Source: a virus. Taken from it: a stretch of 64,000 nt of DNA. The DNA is taken from positions 11,304 through 75,303 of IMG/VR virus record IMGVR_UViG_3300027985_001729; one strand, written 5' to 3'. The notes under the pieces were generated by a model. That model was not told the origin of the DNA, did no database searches, and saw only the letters and a program-made list of their open reading frames with translations. Shown piece after piece: positions 35,486 to 43,805 of this stretch (its first letter is position 1; the number at the start of each line of letters is the position of its first letter). Position numbers and translations under genes: made by a program.

Positions 35486-36649
35486 TCACTGGAAGGCGCC
35501 CTTGATTCGCCCAGTCACGAACGGCGACACGAACTGCTCCGCATCGTTGTGCGCGACGACGACCTGCATCGATCCGCGCGGGCCCTCGTAAGGGTTGTAG
35601 AACTGGCGGACAAGGAAGCCTCCCTGGACCGTCGGCTGCTGCGTCTGCCCCCACGAACTGGGCAGTGCCTGGTCATTGCCAGCGTTCCACCGGAAGGTCT
35701 TTGCCGACGTAACGGTCATGCGCCCGACCTGGTTGCCGTTCGGCGGTCGGTGGGTCAGCACCACGTCACCGGCCCAGATGTATGGGTACGTGTCGGTCGC
35801 CATGTCCCAGATCTTGGCTTCGCACACATGGATGGTGGGCAGATTGAGAAAGGCGGCGAACGCGGCCCTGAGGTCTGGCGTGGGAAGGCCAGGGACGGCC
35901 TGCTTGAAGCCGGTAAAGCGCTGGACGGCAGGGTTCTCCACCATGGCATTCCAGGTATCGAGGGACATGAACATGTCCGTCGCTGGAGCGAGCATCTTTT
36001 CGCGGACTCGGTTGATGTTCGCGACGGGGTCGCTGTTGGACCCACCATTCCACCTGAGCAGTGGATCCACGGTGAGATCGAGCAGCGTAGGCGTGTATGT
36101 GTAATTCGCGTCCGTGTACAGCATCGTCTTGACGCGCTGCTCTCGATTCAGCAAGAGCTTGTTCAACACGAGCTCCATGTGGTCGAACATCAGATTGAGC
36201 GGAGAATCCTGGTTCGCGAGCACTTCGATGGGGATGTTCGCGCCGAGGGCGTACGGATACGTCTGATACCGAGAGTTCGTCAGGGTGACGCCGATCTTGT
36301 TGTACGAGGCTCCGGGCGCGACGATTGTCGCGTCGATGGGCGCGAATGCGTCCTTGGGCGAGAACTCGAAGTATCGATCGGACTCCTTGTCCACCGGAAC
36401 AGGTGGCGCCGCGAGGTCCGCCTTGTACTCTGCGTTCGAGTATTTGACGGCGAAGTTCGCGAGGATCCGCTCGACATGAACGTCGGCAACACCAACGTCC
36501 ATGCGCACGAGTTGCTCCTGCGCAGCGTGTCCACCCATCAAGGTGACGAGTTGCCCGTGGCCGTTGTCGGCGAGCATCACGTTCCTGGCGGGGTCGAAAT
36601 AGCCGATCTTCTGTCCCGTTTCCGGGTTGGTGATGGGGATCATGTTCAT
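35486..36649 (-). CDS. Major capsid protein (HK97 fold)
   Basis: DVHVERILANFAVKY..Y.ADLAAPPVPVDKESDRY, WNGGSNSDPVANI; strong RBS; position. Confidence 0.88.
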   Translation of the reverse strand: MNMIPITNPETGQKIGYFDPARNVMLADNGHGQLVTLMGGHAAQEQLVRMDVGVADVHVERILANFAVKYSNAEYKADLAAPPVPVDKESDRYFEFSPKDAFAPIDATIVAPGASYNKIGVTLTNSRYQTYPYALGANIPIEVLANQDSPLNLMFDHMELVLNKLLLNREQRVKTMLYTDANYTYTPTLLDLTVDPLLRWNGGSNSDPVANINRVREKMLAPATDMFMSLDTWNAMVENPAVQRFTGFKQAVPGLPTPDLRAAFAAFLNLPTIHVCEAKIWDMATDTYPYIWAGDVVLTHRPPNGNQVGRMTVTSAKTFRWNAGNDQALPSSWGQTQQPTVQGGFLVRQFYNPYEGPRGSMQVVVAHNDAEQFVSPFVTGRIKGAFQ

Positions 36650-36736: not shown

Positions 36737-37150
36737 TCAGGTGGGGGTCGACACAACGATGTCGACCTGGAGCAGTTCCCCGTCGGCGGCCGTGTGGATG
36801 GCCTGCCCGAGCTGCTCCACGCCGACGCCTTTGGCCTTGACGCGGCCGAGCTTGCCGATGGTGTCCGAGACCTGCACGTACCCACCCGCGGTGATCGCGC
36901 CGTCGGCGGTAACCTCTGCCCTACCACGCCGCATGATGCTGCCGACCTTGCCAACGTAAATGGTCGTGCGCGTCACCCCTGCCGTCCCGGTGATGCCGCC
37001 ACCAGCGGTGGGAAGCGTGATCCCGGGAGGCGTGTCGCCAGAGGCGGGGTTCGCAGGGTCGAAGATCACCGCGGTTCCGGCGGTGATGTCGGTCAACCCT
37101 GTGTTTTTGACGGTCATGAGGTCCGTCAGCGTGTTCCCAGTCGTGTTCAT
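36737..37150 (-). CDS. Capsid decoration/cement protein (DUF2190-like)
   Basis: G.AEVTADGAITAG..V.....G....LG.AIHTAADGE motif before the capsid gene. Confidence 0.8.
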   Translation of the reverse strand: MNTTGNTLTDLMTVKNTGLTDITAGTAVIFDPANPASGDTPPGITLPTAGGGITGTAGVTRTTIYVGKVGSIMRRGRAEVTADGAITAGGYVQVSDTIGKLGRVKAKGVGVEQLGQAIHTAADGELLQVDIVVSTPT

Positions 37151-37257: not shown

Positions 37258-40200
37258 TCAGTTCAGGCCGTAGTCGGCCATCGTGGCGGTACCGCGCGCG
37301 ATCTTGTACGCCGCGTTGGACGCATCACGCAGCGACAGCCCCTTTTCCTTCTCGAGTCGGTTGCTGAGCGCGACGACATCCACGTTATGCGTGGCCCCGA
37401 ACCCGTTCGGCGCGTCCACGGGCTGGCGCATCGGCACGGTCCCATTTGCACCGTTGGCGCCGCCTTGGACACCCGACCGAGACTCGGTGTACCGCCGGAG
37501 CAGGTCGGCCTGATTCGCGGGGACGAGCGGGTACATCTTATCGAACTGCTCGGGATCGTTCTTCGCGATGACCAACATGCCGCGCTTGTCCTCGTCGGTC
37601 AGGCGCTTCACGTCCTTGTAGGTGAGGAAGGCGGTGTCGACCTTCCTCGCGAGATCCGACTCGTCGCGGAGCCGAATCTGCTCGGCGAGCTTCGCGTTCT
37701 CTGCCTTGGCATTGTCCGCAGCAACGCGCGCGTCCTTGAGCTGAAGCTCGAGCATGGCGTTGCGGTCCTCGGCGTCCTTGAGGCGCACCCCCATGGCGGC
37801 CTTGTCGTCGCCGAGACGCTTCACCTCGGCGTTGAGCTTGTCGTTGAGCGCCACGAGCGCGGCGGGGTCGGTGTCGGTCATGTTCACGTTGTTCGTCATG
37901 GTCGTCGTGGCTCCGTTGTTGTCGCTGGAGTTGGCGTGGTATTCGTCTTCGTGATCGATGATCGCTTCGTCGATCATCTCCTCGATCGCGTCGAGCAGGT
38001 CGCCGAAGGTCATGTGCGCCGGGACATTCATCAGGGCGCGGAGGTCGGTCATGTACGGCTTGAGGTCGAAGCCGAGCGCCACCATATTTGGGTCGGCGTT
38101 TTCGGCGTGTTCACGCAGTCTTCCAACCTCAGCTTTGCACTCGGCGGCCGTGGCGGATTCGCCAAGCCTGAGAGCGCTTCGCAGGGCGGGAAAGAAGGTG
38201 TTCATGTTCGCGAGACGTTGATTGAGCATGCTGCCTCCAGGACGGTCCTTCGCCGCGACGGGCAGCATGCCGTCCAAAAACGGATTGTTGGTCAGGGCGC
38301 CGCTCGTCATGCGCGCCCCAATCGGCTGACCCGTCACGCGGTCCTTCGACCCGAACCTGATCGCCGGAGAGAAGAATCGATACTTGCCTTCTCGGATGTA
38401 GGTGCGCGCGGGCTCCATCCACCGGACGAGCCCCCAGAGCCCATCTGCACCCCTGTTGTCGAGCTCGAGAATCCAGCCCTGCGCCGGAGCCCCCAGCACC
38501 GGGATGGAGCCGTTCGCGCATGGCTCCTCGGTGGCGTGTTCAAAGTCGATCGGGATCCGCTGGTTGACTGTCTTGCGGAAGTTGTCGACGATCTGCTCGA
38601 AGATCCCAGGGTTGAGGTCGAATGGGCCAGCGGGATGACCCCGGAAAGTCCCCACCTTGGCGACCTGAATCCAGCGGGGCCCATCGTCCGTCTCGCCATC
38701 GCTCGCCGCCATACCCTTCGCGCTGGCGAGAAGGCGCTCTGCTTCTTCGACGAGACCCTTGTCGCGGAGGGCTTTGACCTGCTCGTTCAGCTTGGTCTGG
38801 TCACATGCCGGAGCCTTCGCGGTTCCGAGGGTGAGCTCGACGCATTCGCCCATGAGGATGGGGTCCTCGCCATCCGCCATGGCGTGACGGATCTCGAAGC
38901 TTGGACCCCCAGGGAGACCAATGCGCATGTGCAGACCTCGAGGCCGAGGCCCCATAGGGCGCCCTTCGAACGGTGCACCCATGGCTCCTTCCTTCGCCTC
39001 GACCGGCTTCCCCTCGTGCTTGATGCCGAACTTCTTGTACGCCTTGAGGATGTTGCCCTTGACCCGGTCGTAGGTGGCCTTCGACATCGAGCTCTTGTTC
39101 TGCTCCAGGCGTGCCATCGCGTTGCGAGCGTGAGCTGCGTCGTGGATCGGGTAAGCCCTCTGCTCTGGCCACGCGAATGCGTTCTTGGGCAGCGCTTTGC
39201 GCTGCTTGGTCTTGAGCGGCGCCATGGTGCGCTTGCCCTGCCCCTGGTTATTTTGCTTGTCGGTCGGGAGAGCATTCAACCCAAGGGTGGCGAGCGATCG
39301 CTGAACGGCGTTGTTGAGATCTGCTTCTGTGTTGCTCATGGTGACCCTGGTTGTTGCGAGGTCTGGACGGTCAAAGGAGGTCGGTGAGCGGGATAGGGTG
39401 GCGATGTCACGAGCGGGCCAGAACAACGACCGCCCGTCCTTCGCGACGAAGGCGATCCAATCCTTTTGAGGTGCCTCGATCCACCCGAGCCAACCACCAA
39501 CGTCATCGGGGTTCGCGTAGGTCCCGGAGAGCTCCGCGGAGAGGGCAGGGTGGTTCTCTGGCATCCCACCTGCGCGGCAGAGCACAGCCCAGCCGTGTAC
39601 CGCGACAAAGCTCGACGAGGACTCTCGAGCGTGCATGACGTGGGCGGGCTCTCCACGGTCAGAGGCCTTCTTCTCGTCGGCGGCGTCCATCTGGCGCACG
39701 AGCTTCTCCGACCACGCGCGTCCAGGATCACCGCCCCATAGCGCCCATGCGATGCGCCCGTTCGAGGGAAAGCCATCCTCAGCCGGAGACCACCCCTTGC
39801 CCTTCTTGTCCACCTCGTGGCGTGGGAAGTAGCGCGAGATGTGCCGTGCCTTGTCGGGGGAAACTCGAGGCGACCCGACCAGGGCACGAGCGGTGGCAAC
39901 ACCAACCTCGGTTCCTCCGCGCCCGTGCTCCTTCCGCCAGTCGAGGCCGCGCTTGGCTTCCTCAGCGACGCCCTTGGGAACGCTGAAGTCGATGTGGTCG
40001 TATCGACCATCGGCCAAGCGCCTGGCCTGCGAGGCGGCAAGGTAGTGGTCGTAGGCATCCAAGACCGCCTGCATGACGGAGGACCCAGATAGCCCGACGG
40101 TGGTGACGCCTTCGGCGACTGATTTGATCGAGCACCGCCACGACATCGAAGAGCTAGGTCCCTGGCCGATGAGACGCCCATTCGCAGCGTGAGCCATGGC

Positions 40201-41046
40201 CTGCTGGTCGAGGTCGAGGATGGCTCTCTCTGGCGCCCGCTCTGCACACGTCCGGTGCATGCGATAGAAAAGGCTGTACCCGCAGGCTGGACCTTCGATC
40301 GCCATCAAGCTGACCGTGCGCACATCCGTCTCCGTCCACGGGACGCCACAGAGGGGGCACGTGTTGTTTGTCGGCTCGGTTGGATCCGAGTTGGGCCCCG
40401 TGAAGTAGCCGACGGACTCGGGTGGAAGTGTCGGACCACCAGACCATTCACCATGATCAGACATCGAGACGATCCCAGGATCGATGCCGAGCAGGGCCCG
40501 GATGAAGCCTACTGGGATGTCGATCATGTCCCCGAAGCGCTCCTGTGGGATGTGCGCGCAGTAGCAGGCCAGCGCGTCGACATCCGAGTCGAACCCGAGC
40601 ATCACCTTGAGCTCGTCGAACGTCCCATCCTTCTTGAGCTGCTTGATGAGGTACGCCCGCTCGGCGCGCGGGTTCGGGCCCACGAATACGTCGAGCTCTT
40701 CACCGTCGCCGCCATCGGTCTTGCGGATGAACCCGTAGTCGACGAGGTAGGTGCGCGTGGCGACCACGTTGCCCGCGTCGTCGAGGAGCTCCTGCACGAA
40801 CCCTTTGGGGCGGTCGATGGCCACCTGAATCCCAGAGACTTCGACCACCTTGGCGATCTTCGCTGGCTTCTTCTTCGTCCGCGGGTCGGCGAGACACATC
40901 GGGATGTCGAGCATCGACATGGCAGCGCCTGCCGGGTAGACGGGCTTGACACGTTTTCCGCCTGGCTTCCGACGACCCCTCGAAACCTGGATAGGTCCTT
41001 CCACGTGGACGTCGGCGACGCCAAGGTCGAGAGATCGCGCTGTCAT
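37258..41046 (-). CDS. Multidomain prohead protease/scaffold polyprotein (Mu gpI-like protease with N-terminal cargo domains)
   Basis: Protease motifs WIQV..G.F.GH, IPIDFEHA, AQGWI, GKYRFFSP, ALTNNPFL; C-terminal coiled coil; N-terminal DYGFIRKTDGGDGEELDVFVG..FDELKVMLGF; AGGA RBS before MTARS. Confidence 0.9.
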   Translation of the reverse strand: MTARSLDLGVADVHVEGPIQVSRGRRKPGGKRVKPVYPAGAAMSMLDIPMCLADPRTKKKPAKIAKVVEVSGIQVAIDRPKGFVQELLDDAGNVVATRTYLVDYGFIRKTDGGDGEELDVFVGPNPRAERAYLIKQLKKDGTFDELKVMLGFDSDVDALACYCAHIPQERFGDMIDIPVGFIRALLGIDPGIVSMSDHGEWSGGPTLPPESVGYFTGPNSDPTEPTNNTCPLCGVPWTETDVRTVSLMAIEGPACGYSLFYRMHRTCAERAPERAILDLDQQAMAHAANGRLIGQGPSSSMSWRCSIKSVAEGVTTVGLSGSSVMQAVLDAYDHYLAASQARRLADGRYDHIDFSVPKGVAEEAKRGLDWRKEHGRGGTEVGVATARALVGSPRVSPDKARHISRYFPRHEVDKKGKGWSPAEDGFPSNGRIAWALWGGDPGRAWSEKLVRQMDAADEKKASDRGEPAHVMHARESSSSFVAVHGWAVLCRAGGMPENHPALSAELSGTYANPDDVGGWLGWIEAPQKDWIAFVAKDGRSLFWPARDIATLSRSPTSFDRPDLATTRVTMSNTEADLNNAVQRSLATLGLNALPTDKQNNQGQGKRTMAPLKTKQRKALPKNAFAWPEQRAYPIHDAAHARNAMARLEQNKSSMSKATYDRVKGNILKAYKKFGIKHEGKPVEAKEGAMGAPFEGRPMGPRPRGLHMRIGLPGGPSFEIRHAMADGEDPILMGECVELTLGTAKAPACDQTKLNEQVKALRDKGLVEEAERLLASAKGMAASDGETDDGPRWIQVAKVGTFRGHPAGPFDLNPGIFEQIVDNFRKTVNQRIPIDFEHATEEPCANGSIPVLGAPAQGWILELDNRGADGLWGLVRWMEPARTYIREGKYRFFSPAIRFGSKDRVTGQPIGARMTSGALTNNPFLDGMLPVAAKDRPGGSMLNQRLANMNTFFPALRSALRLGESATAAECKAEVGRLREHAENADPNMVALGFDLKPYMTDLRALMNVPAHMTFGDLLDAIEEMIDEAIIDHEDEYHANSSDNNGATTTMTNNVNMTDTDPAALVALNDKLNAEVKRLGDDKAAMGVRLKDAEDRNAMLELQLKDARVAADNAKAENAKLAEQIRLRDESDLARKVDTAFLTYKDVKRLTDEDKRGMLVIAKNDPEQFDKMYPLVPANQADLLRRYTESRSGVQGGANGANGTVPMRQPVDAPNGFGATHNVDVVALSNRLEKEKGLSLRDASNAAYKIARGTATMADYGLN

Positions 41047-41056
41047 GGTGTCCTGC

Positions 41057-41425
41057 TCAGGGGATGTTGTGGCCAATGGCGATCGCTACCGCCCGAACGA
41101 CGGAGAGGAAGAGCGCATCTTTTGCGCGCTGCTCAGGAGGCAGCGATCGGTACGGGACCATGCACGGGTGGGTCTTCGCGGCGATGTCCTTGACCGCCCC
41201 ATATGCCCACCCAGTGCGTTCTTTTTCAGCCAGCCACTCGGCGTGGCTCTGCTCTGGCGTGTTCCCAGCCAGAGCACCAGCGACACCCTTCCGCGCGCTC
41301 TCCTTCTGCCAGTCGGGGGCGTCGTCCCATGCCGGCTGCGAAGTGTCCCCGATCGCCAAGCAGTAGGCGCGGTTCGCCTCGTGCGCCGCTCGAGCGCAGG
41401 TCTCAATGACGGCCTGCGGCGTCAT
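41057..41425 (-). CDS. RyR-domain protein
   Basis: SHAEWLAEKERTGWAYGAVKD...KTHPCMVPYRSLPPEQRAKD. Confidence 0.85.
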   Translation of the reverse strand: MTPQAVIETCARAAHEANRAYCLAIGDTSQPAWDDAPDWQKESARKGVAGALAGNTPEQSHAEWLAEKERTGWAYGAVKDIAAKTHPCMVPYRSLPPEQRAKDALFLSVVRAVAIAIGHNIP

Positions 41426-42069
41426 GCTGCGGTGGCGACCTCGTAGGTGATCACGTAGTCGTTGGTGCCGTTCGGCGCGGTGTTCGGCGTGTAACCGCCG
41501 TTCGGCGCATTGACCGTGGGGAGAGAGAAAGTGCCATCGGTCGCCGGCATGACCCCATTTACCTTCTCCCCCAGGTAGTGCGCGTACCCGGCTCGAGAGG
41601 CGATCGGGGACCCGAGCCCGATCACGTCGCCTGTGCCAACCGACATCGTTGCCCCCGTCCCATCGCCGGCCGTGAACGCGATCGAGGTGATGCTCGCGAA
41701 GCACTTCACTCCAGCCGCCACGGTCGCCGTCTGGGCCACAGTGATGGTCTCTGTGATCACCGACCCGTTGACGTCGTACCCAGTGACGACAGCCTCCGCC
41801 GGGGCATCCGCAGGCGTCAGACCCGCCGTGGTGATCGTGATGTTGCGTGGCGGGCTGATGGCGCCGTCGCCGATCGTCCCGTCGAGATCGGCCACGCCGT
41901 AAGTCACCGCAGTCACCTGGCTGGCCTGGGCGGTCAGGATCGCCACCGCATCAGCCGCGGCTACGTTCGCCATCTCGTCCACAGTACCCACCAGCAGGTC
42001 GGCCTGAAGGAGGTGCTTGGCGATCGAGTAGGGGTAGTTCGAGACGTTGGGGGAAAAGCGGGTCGTCAT
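41422..42069 (-). CDS. Beta-rich virion structural protein
   Basis: PRNITIT...VTGYDVNGSVITETIT...GVKCFASITSI; ATGA overlaps on both sides. Confidence 0.75.
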   Translation of the reverse strand: MTTRFSPNVSNYPYSIAKHLLQADLLVGTVDEMANVAAADAVAILTAQASQVTAVTYGVADLDGTIGDGAISPPRNITITTAGLTPADAPAEAVVTGYDVNGSVITETITVAQTATVAAGVKCFASITSIAFTAGDGTGATMSVGTGDVIGLGSPIASRAGYAHYLGEKVNGVMPATDGTFSLPTVNAPNGGYTPNTAPNGTNDYVITYEVATAA

Positions 42070-43805
42070 GGCAAGTCCTCATCCTTCGGCGGCTTCGCGC
42101 CTTTTCGTGTCTTCGCAGGCGGCGACGCGGGGACAGCCTTGCCGCCCTCCTCGCCCACATCCTCGTTTTGCTTCGATCTTTCTCCCTCACCAATGGGCGC
42201 CCCCGTCGCCGCAGGAGCAGGAGCCCCAACATCGACAGGCGTGGTTGGTGGCACAGGCTTGGCGAACTTTGCGATCAGCCCGGCCATGAACCCGGCGACG
42301 TCGCTCTCCGTCATTCTGGCAAGAGCGCTCTTCATCGCGGGGGTAATGTTGAGCCCAACAGCCTCAGCCAGAGCGACGGCAAGGCTTTGGAAATCCGTCT
42401 CGCCGGATCGGCCATGCAGAGCCTCGAGCAGCATCAGCTCAGCAGGCTTGAGCGGGGCAACGCGGATGCTTTCTTCGTCCTTGGGGTTGACCAGCCGCAG
42501 GCCGAGCTCGCCAGCGAGCCATGCCCCATCTACCGGCAGGCCAATGCCCGCCGCATCGATCGCGCGCTTGAGGAGCGCTTCTGGGCTCACGTGCTCAACG
42601 TGGACGATGATGTTGGGGCAGAGGTGCTCCTCGCCAGGAAAGTTCAGATGAGTGAGCCACCAGATGAGATCCGTCTTGATGGTGTCCGCGAAGTTGGCAG
42701 CGTCGTAGCGCGCATTGCGGATGCTCCCACGCTCGTGAACCTCACCAAGGCTTCGAGCCCCACGGTCGCCCGCATCGGTGGTGAGGGTGCCCCCGAGCAC
42801 GGCCTTGCTCATCTCGTCGTTGCAAAGACGGATCAGCTCAGCGTGGTTCATCCCCCCGGACGAACCCTTCATCGCCGGGCCATCGAGCTCGACCTTTATC
42901 GAGTCGGGCAGGGTGGCTCCGGCAAGAGCTCCCGACCCGAGCGCCTTCAGGGCAAGGTCGGCAGCGTCGATGTCCGGCTGCGTCGCGACGCGTGGGTTGG
43001 GGTTATTGGGGATCTTGGTGTTGTAGTAGGCGAGGGCCCAGGGCTTTGAAAACCGCTCGACGAACTGCGACGCCCCGCGCATGGCCATGTTTTTGATGGC
43101 CATGTACCAGGCGATCTCTCTGCCAACGCCTTCGCGCGTCGTGTAGTTGCCTCGCACACCTGGCTCGAAGACGATGAACTTCCCTGGGTGATCGGCGACG
43201 CTCAGCCCGAAGACGTTCATGGTCGGCTGCTCGGCCATCCCAAGCCCAGGCTGGACCATGCCCTGGTCCCAGATCCGCAAATCCCACCGCCCCTGGTCCG
43301 GGTAGGCAAGCCGTCGGCTGTGAATGAAACCGAACCCCGCCACGTGCCAGCCGTCGACATCGCGGGTCCAGTAGGTCTCTAGCGCGGTGATCCCGTAGAA
43401 GACGCCCCAGAGCAGACCGTAGAAGGCCTTCGTCTTCTTGGGGATCTCGTCCCACCTCTGCTGCACGACGTCGCGGATGTACGCCGCCCTTTGCGCCGCG
43501 TCTGCGTCTCCTTCGGGTGTCTTCGCTGCGACGATATCAACGCGCCCTCCAGCCACCGCCAGCACGCGCTGGGAGACGATGGCGAAGGCGTGCGGGTCCT
43601 TCTCGATGAGCTCGTCGAGAGCATCGACGTATTGCTGGCGGTACCCGCTCTGGCAGAGCCGGTAGACCGCCGACAGATATTGAAGGGTAAGGTTGGACCC
43701 GAGGAGGGTCGGGTACCTATCGATGAGCGGGATCGGCGCCAGGACGCGCTCGCCAGCATTGTCGTTGCCGCTCTGCGCGACGAACGGGTTCTTTTTGCTG
43801 GCCAT
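42066..43805 (-). CDS. Portal protein (Mu gp29/DUF935-like)
   Basis: EKDPH, FVERFSKPW, CNDEMSKAVLGGTLTT..G.RSLGEVHE. Confidence 0.93.
   Translation of the reverse strand: MASKKNPFVAQSGNDNAGERVLAPIPLIDRYPTLLGSNLTLQYLSAVYRLCQSGYRQQYVDALDELIEKDPHAFAIVSQRVLAVAGGRVDIVAAKTPEGDADAAQRAAYIRDVVQQRWDEIPKKTKAFYGLLWGVFYGITALETYWTRDVDGWHVAGFGFIHSRRLAYPDQGRWDLRIWDQGMVQPGLGMAEQPTMNVFGLSVADHPGKFIVFEPGVRGNYTTREGVGREIAWYMAIKNMAMRGASQFVERFSKPWALAYYNTKIPNNPNPRVATQPDIDAADLALKALGSGALAGATLPDSIKVELDGPAMKGSSGGMNHAELIRLCNDEMSKAVLGGTLTTDAGDRGARSLGEVHERGSIRNARYDAANFADTIKTDLIWWLTHLNFPGEEHLCPNIIVHVEHVSPEALLKRAIDAAGIGLPVDGAWLAGELGLRLVNPKDEESIRVAPLKPAELMLLEALHGRSGETDFQSLAVALAEAVGLNITPAMKSALARMTESDVAGFMAGLIAKFAKPVPPTTPVDVGAPAPAATGAPIGEGERSKQNEDVGEEGGKAVPASPPAKTRKGAKPPKDEDLP

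Follow-up and report, generated by a model that had tools for sequence, protein, structure and literature searches.

A conserved peptide common to the major capsid protein and the protease-scaffold polyprotein of an uncultured phage clade, a candidate recognition site of the prohead protease

The window analysed here, 64 kb of a 75-kb viral contig, carries a myovirus-type head-tail module whose head genes lie on the minus strand; the gene order is portal, two small ORFs, polyprotein, a small ORF in the position of a head-decoration gene, capsid, neck and sheath. The portal gene (42066-43805), upstream in the module, and the decoration-position ORF (36737-37150), which has similar counterparts in relatives, both lacked the motif that is the subject of this study. 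The two small ORFs between portal and polyprotein (41422-42069 and 41057-41704) each code for 215 aa and overlap by 283 nt in different frames, possibly owing to a frameshift or to one of them being spurious. The second alone matched a PHROG (phrog_5154), and the first displayed a weak motif-like sequence from near 41655 (M-S-V-G-T-G-D-V-I, scoring 9.4 with the position-specific scoring matrix, or PSSM, introduced below).

The major capsid protein gene (35486-36649, minus strand; phrog_1005) codes for 387 aa. Its product displayed the HK97 fold, as judged from an AF2 model (pLDDT 82) for which Foldseek returned 3bjq (E 1.7e-17), followed by the P23-45, lambda and HK97 capsids; 3bjq was also the only match of a PDB sequence search. 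A good AGGA ribosome-binding site lies 7 nt before the ATG at 36649 and, together with the leaders found in relatives, supports the N-terminal leader of about 50 aa proposed in the initial annotation (residues 1-50, 36500-36649, minus strand), which is absent from leaderless relatives. Prediction gave a small beta domain of four strands for residues 1-36 (36542-36649, minus strand; pLDDT 71-80), and the pattern G-x-G...D-L-x-N-N-T is common to the leaders of many relatives, so that the leader may be a folded module rather than a simple propeptide.

The polyprotein gene (37258-41046, minus strand) codes for 1262 aa from its ATG. This codon is most likely the start, in preference to an alternative TTG at 41076, since an AGGA lies 4 nt upstream, the database gene call is also of 1262 aa and relatives begin with M-T-x-x-x-L-D-L-G. 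From the N-terminus, the product comprises the short peptide discussed below (hereafter the tag), an InPase cargo domain (PF18823, E 2.4e-25, 40525-40851), a Zn-ribbon-like stretch, a phrog_2859-like domain ('X353', a profile match at 39652-40020 that is also frequent in the polyproteins of relatives), DUF6582 (PF20223, 39019-39189, usually found after the motif in relatives), a prohead protease of the Mu gpI type (PF10123, 38242-38688) and a helical, coiled-coil-like scaffold part (37261-38241), all on the minus strand. With several unrelated effector-type domains (InPase, phrog_2859-like and DUF6582), it can be counted among the polyvalent proteins. The Zn-ribbon-like stretch (C-P-L-C...Cys/His, 40270-40340, minus strand, approximately residues 240-260) aligned to the C-x-x-C...C-x-x-C stretch of related locus L025, where it directly follows the motif. 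An element of about 20 residues, R-G-L-x-M-R-I..P/D-G-G..I-R-H, was observed between the motif or DUF6582 and the protease in nearly all relatives, tagless ones included; its form in the window is R-G-L-H-M-R-I-G-L-P-G-G-P-S-F-E-I-R-H (approximately 38880-38940, minus strand).

The protease scored 107.9 bits against PF10123, for a cut-off of 25.2, which places it in the Mu gpI-type family, and it also matched phrog_328 (E 1.3e-37). The protease-scaffold part is about 30% identical to the protease (I) and scaffold (Z) proteins of Pseudomonas Mu-like phages, and a PDB sequence search with it returned nothing. The histidine of IDFEH and the serine of FFSPAIR were invariant across 69 sequences. 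At the structural level, the top Foldseek matches were all herpesvirus proteases (assemblins) and T4 gp21, with weak scores (E ~0.04).

Minus-strand positions 40999-41028 code for DLGVADVHVE and positions 36470-36499 for DVGVADVHVE, residues 51-60 of the capsid protein; plus-strand translation of both stretches gave unrelated peptides. With the ATG at 41046 as start, the tag core occupies residues 7-16 of the 1262 of the polyprotein. Both peptides were found where the initial annotation had placed them, including the N-terminal location of the polyprotein copy. The extended tag, A-R-S-L-DLGVADVHVE-G-P (40993-41040, minus strand), includes flanks that are kept in relatives, namely basic or hydrophobic residues before the D and G-P after the core. 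The capsid copy, L-V-R-M-DVGVADVHVE-R-I (36464-36511, minus strand), sits at the joint between leader and N-arm.

At 9/10 identity, the pair was the best ungapped 10-mer match between polyprotein and capsid protein; the maximum 10-mer identity reached in 500 shuffles of the polyprotein was 5-7, never above 7/10. Codon comparison confirmed that 7 of the 30 nt differ between the two copies, six changes being synonymous and one non-synonymous (CTT/GTT, L/V), and identical codons occurred for just three of the nine matching residues. The annotators' view that the match is retained at protein level, and does not stem from a recent DNA duplication, is in line with these mostly differing codons and with the recurrence of the pair in relatives. 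When all six frames of the window were scanned with the PSSM, derived from capsid motifs, only two strong sites appeared (38.8 and 25.7), the next-best score being 11. A candidate degenerate second site in the polyprotein, P-D-L-A-T-T-R-V-T-M-S before DUF6582, was not supported, the best PSSM score in that stretch being -2.1.

Relatives were found by alignment-based scans of genome and viral contigs, single-sequence scans having found none. The motif common to them spans 12-14 residues and follows the consensus hydrophobic-basic-hydrophobic-D-L-G-x-x-D-V-H-x-[D/E/P], of which DLGVADVHVE represents the core. The PSSM, built from 36 distinct capsid motifs, was scanned over 885 kb of related loci and yielded, at scores of at least 10, 90 matches on the gene strand and 0 on the opposite strand. 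Strong matches outside capsid genes lay in the protease ORF of 15 non-redundant loci, with one strong second copy each. This copy was N-terminal in the window and in L011, L030, L039, L048/49, L053 and L054, and internal in the others, where it followed MuF (L012), DUF6582 (L017), InPase (L025), NUDIX (L036 and L037), a ParB-like domain (L047) or a domain of no known type (L038). Searches of the phage collection found no cultured phage with the full system; the nearest cultured capsids, from Rhizobium RHph phages (25% identity), displayed a 13-aa leader and only the DVH part, and these phages encode a different protease without tag.

Homologues of the protease-scaffold part extended this picture. 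Among the long ones, 75 of 81 carried a strong motif and only two a weak second match. In about 61 of these 75, the motif was located between upstream cargo (MuF, phrog_2859-like domain, NUDIX, InPase and others) and DUF6582 or the protease. Eleven long polyproteins (the window and 10 others) had the motif first, within 30 residues of the N-terminus, and eight of these, the window included, carried cargo downstream; in two more, the motif followed the protease. The motif was also present in at least 59 of 120 shorter protease-scaffold proteins, starting near the N-terminus (within 30 residues) in 52 and lying further in for 7, and several of the negative ones begin inside the motif. N-terminal motifs most often lay 4-10 residues from the N-terminus and were followed by a low-complexity basic linker. 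The proteins in which the pair recurred numbered well over a hundred, with overall identities of 30-50%. The window tag with its G-P-x-x-V-x-R flank aligned to the internal motif of L025, located there after the InPase, which indicates that cargo and motif swapped order during evolution.

The effector domains of relatives included MuF, NUDIX, InPase, 2H phosphoesterase and an intein-bearing MuF, and several architectures deserve separate mention. In P0073 (1092 aa), protease, scaffold, a K1-lyase_C-like segment and a complete leader-motif-capsid unit are fused in one ORF. The motif comes after the protease in P0092, which has a 2H phosphoesterase in front, and in the ORF at L063:2-3082. In P0014 (1261 aa), a Hint/intein splicing domain splits the MuF domain, and the motif, DUF6582 and protease follow downstream. 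Finally, L011 has a 490-aa ORF (L011:5830-7348) at the position equivalent to the 215-aa ORFs of the window, to which it is not homologous; it is in frame with the protease ORF, a single TAG and four codons preceding the motif, an arrangement that could represent stop-codon read-through or recent gene fission. A read-through or fusion origin of N-terminal tags was discarded as a general explanation, as L011 alone displayed an in-frame upstream ORF across a single TAG.

The initial annotation had proposed co-variation of the two peptides across related phages as a check, and it was detected. At 11 variable positions, identity averaged 3.93 within genomes versus 2.47 between genomes (15 loci), and none of 20,000 permutations reached the observed within-genome identity (p<5e-5); these 15 loci are related, so the independent events are fewer than 15. 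Matched pairs within genomes included G-Q-G/G-Q-G, G-V-G/G-V-G, G-P-S/G-P-S, G-I-A/G-I-A and H-Q/H-Q. Across loci, only about half of the identical residues used identical codons, and such mostly differing codons argue for selection on the peptide and against recent DNA copying. A shared functional signal in capsid protein and polyprotein is well supported by these sequence comparisons.

On the capsid side, every leader-bearing relative had the motif between the leader and the HK97-fold body. Leaders ranged from 24 to 226 aa and were poorly conserved, and capsid relatives at 25-52% identity all displayed the full motif, with [D/P] at its last position. More distant, leaderless capsids begin 5-8 residues before [D/N/S]-V-H-[V/I]-[D/N]. 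From these alignments, V-H (mostly DVH) is a feature of the N-arm throughout the capsid family, and the D-L-G part together with the leader is restricted to one clade. A Mu-type protease was encoded in every locus of the leader-bearing clade with enough upstream DNA, and in none of the leaderless loci whose upstream DNA extended for 3.5 kb or more (L002, L004, L005, L010, L066 and L070). Since V-H is conserved in leaderless capsids without a Mu-type protease, this segment of the motif seems to fulfil an independent structural function in the N-arm. Two loci (L036:3400-4554 and L054:7915-8982) further displayed a second capsid paralogue between the protease-scaffold and major capsid genes, with a leader and a degenerate motif (M-D-L-G-V-A-D-V-A and L-D-L-A-P-A-D-V-V), possibly specialised as a penton or minor shell protein.

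Two possibilities had been put forward at the outset for the polyprotein peptide, a targeting tag mimicking the capsid N-arm or a protease site shared with the capsid. The notion of a shared signal has held, and of the two possibilities the evidence leans towards the protease site. Our favoured reading, which we consider somewhat better than even, is that the prohead protease recognises and cuts both proteins at this shared motif, which possibly serves as a loading tag as well. By it the Mu gpI-type serine protease encoded by the phage, perhaps assemblin-like in fold, would recognise its two main substrates, with a single maturation site marked in each. The site of the capsid protein would separate a disposable leader from the N-arm of the HK97-fold body, and that of the polyprotein would delimit the protease-scaffold module. 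Within the procapsid, the enzyme would bind the motif and cut in it or beside it, which would remove the capsid leader and process the polyprotein that contains the protease, and the two copies would drift together since both must fit one protease. In the window, where only six residues precede the tag and the InPase follows, it may mainly act as a recognition element that is clipped off, or as a loading tag, comparable to the T4 capsid-targeting sequence or the N-terminus of the 80alpha scaffold.

Several observations argue for this reading. The capsid motif always lies between a variable leader and a conserved body, leader and D-L-G part co-occur with the Mu-type protease, and the second copy sits in the protease ORF in 15 loci. 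The motif occupies cargo/protease joints in most long polyproteins, which is where processing would be expected, and the P0073 fusion has it at the joint too. The protease itself exceeds the Pfam threshold, has invariant His and Ser residues and gives weak fold matches to assemblin and gp21. Relatives lacking the matched peptide, which the initial annotation regarded as evidence against its proposal, do occur, but only as a minority in which capsid leader and motif are kept and the protease ORF has no tag (L015/16, L035, L041 and L026-type loci); since the capsid motif persists beside a tagless protease, the protease would be its constant partner. A precedent exists in phage 80alpha, where a motif of capsid and scaffold proteins lies at a common cleavage site (PMC5744158).

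Other observations count against a plain cleavage site. A single copy per polyprotein in spite of many joints indicates that the motif is no generic inter-domain site, and where it is near the N-terminus with cargo downstream a cut would free almost nothing; in the window it would leave the InPase attached. Moreover, V-H is conserved in leaderless, protease-less capsids, and 12-14 conserved residues are long for a protease subsite code. A combined reading, in which a loading signal is subsequently clipped off as in the T4 capsid-targeting sequence (CTS), is possible by analogy.

Some of these same observations would suit a pure docking tag, which we consider unlikely, though the best placed of the alternatives. 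The polyprotein peptide would here mimic the start of the N-arm and fill its site on a neighbouring subunit or the inner shell, tethering protease, scaffold and cargo in the procapsid, and cleavage at the motif would be unnecessary. Docking would fit the single copy found in each polypeptide, irrespective of whether cargo precedes or follows it, as well as the commonest position of the tag, at the extreme N-terminus before a low-complexity basic linker, reminiscent of a tethered peptide. The shared part includes DVH, of which V-H is kept in the N-arm of capsids having neither leader nor protease, and co-variation would also be expected if the tag fitted the groove of the capsid's own N-arm. 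It leaves unexplained, however, the exact placement at the leader/body joint and the way leader and D-L-G part track the Mu-type protease. Nor does it readily account for relatives combining a capsid motif with a tagless protease, for the internal position of the motif at the cargo/protease joint of most long polyproteins, or for a similarity that reaches into the leader end (V-K-M versus V-K-A, R-K-M and H-L-L), outside the mature N-arm.

A displacement switch appears slightly less probable again. The tag would occupy, in the procapsid, a shell groove later filled by the start of the capsid N-arm, and leader removal would swap the capsid peptide in and evict the tag. Protease, scaffold and fused enzymes would be loaded in an encapsulin-like manner, and eviction would couple maturation to the release of scaffold and cargo.

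It is more doubtful still that a third partner binds both copies or that the copies pair, for instance in a beta-hairpin zipper of capsid N-arm and scaffold N-terminus, through a shared metal site of D, D and H residues, or at a common site on the portal or decoration protein. On inspection of the sequence, a hairpin would be compatible with the alternating hydrophobic residues and central G-x-x, the invariant D..D-x-H is reminiscent of a set of metal ligands, and like-with-like pairing would also yield co-variation. Obligatory pairing is nevertheless at odds with relatives having a capsid motif and no protease copy, and the motif was absent from the other head proteins of the window. Structure models did not favour this reading either, pLDDT at the motif being low in both monomer models: the AF2 capsid monomer was uninformative on binding in this region, as was that of the short protease-scaffold protein P0200, where the tag was undocked and residues 1-64 had pLDDT <50. 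A predicted complex of the protease domain with capsid residues 1-85 scored 0.00 in a run without controls and weighs neither way. As to a chance match, favoured only by the shortness of the peptide, or a functionless leftover of recent local DNA duplication, their probability is negligible and both are refuted by shuffles that never exceeded 7/10, by six synonymous changes out of seven and by the recurrence of the pair in the 15 loci and their many homologues.

A literature search gave no description of the motif or of the cleavage specificity of Mu-type proteases, and no published cleavage or targeting code for head proteases of the Mu gpI type. The motif represents a concrete candidate for such a code across a large, so far uncultured phage clade whose capsids are lambda-E-like and leader-bearing and whose protease-scaffold genes are fusions with MuF, NUDIX, InPase and further enzymes that are probably injected. 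Places of processing in both capsid protein and polyprotein are predicted from it, and one conserved signal would explain how the variable cargo can come before or after it. Should the tag be sufficient for loading, it would be short and portable enough to direct foreign proteins into HK97-fold shells; should it mimic the N-arm, it would reveal a new way of recruiting scaffold and cargo.

Among known systems, the polyvalent proteins of Iyer, Burroughs and Aravind (2017) are multi-domain, virion-associated proteins with combinations of MuF, InPase, NUDIX and ParB-like domains (PMC5512222). They are believed to be packaged, injected and processed into units, a step chiefly ascribed to a Zn-metallopeptidase (MPTase) domain, and a search of the text by terms gave no match for a capsid-matching motif (PMC5512222). 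The cargo domains of our polyproteins are comparable; the difference lies in their fusion to a head-maturation protease and scaffold with a motif matching the capsid.

Encapsulin cargo-loading peptides are short and terminal and bind the luminal face of an HK97-fold shell. The present tag is likewise a short terminal peptide and would be a candidate binder of an HK97-fold shell, yet its motif is unrelated and also occurs within the shell protein itself. In the herpesvirus assemblin-scaffold system, the protease-scaffold fusion has a few specific self-cleavage sites (R and M) sharing a consensus; these are 4-residue codes, (V/L)-x-A/S, not known from the major capsid protein, and the scaffold C-terminus binds the capsid. 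The fusion of protease to scaffold is a common trait, and the assemblin-like fold may be another (a weak match), in contrast to the present motif being common to the major capsid protein.

The T4 CTS, carried by IPI-III and Alt, loads proteins into the prohead and is removed by gp21 at L/I-x-E, and the cargo enzymes are delivered with the DNA; several distinct cargo genes encode it, and it is not known to match the capsid protein. The proposed likeness is that of a short N-terminal loading peptide at a head-protease site. No set of separate tagged cargo genes of the T4 type was found in the 64-kb window, whose two strong sites are those of capsid protein and polyprotein. Unlike the T4 CTS, the tag is present once per genome, on the protease-scaffold polyprotein, matches the start of the capsid N-arm and has its cargo fused covalently.

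The closest parallel is 80alpha, whose capsid (CP) and scaffold (SP) proteins share a short N-terminal motif that is a common protease cleavage site, cleavage taking off only 13-14 residues (PMC5744158). A pre-cleaved SP without the N-terminal peptide was the sole mutant failing to give normal phage, from which the peptide seems to matter before cleavage; cleavage is by Prp, a cysteine protease of the host, and the motif is a copy of that in ribosomal protein L27 (PMC5744158). As in 80alpha, one motif is found near the N-termini of the capsid and scaffold proteins of one phage. In contrast, the protease is phage-encoded, belongs to the Mu gpI type and shares a polypeptide with the tag. The capsid leader is far longer (50 aa here, reaching 226 in relatives), the tag is internal in some polyproteins, at joints with cargo, and the motif bears no sequence relation to the F|A site (PMC5744158). 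By analogy, the system would work like the 80alpha motif and the T4 CTS with gp21, and appears to belong to neither, since it has a different protease, an unrelated sequence, a tag on the protease-scaffold and a match to the capsid N-arm.
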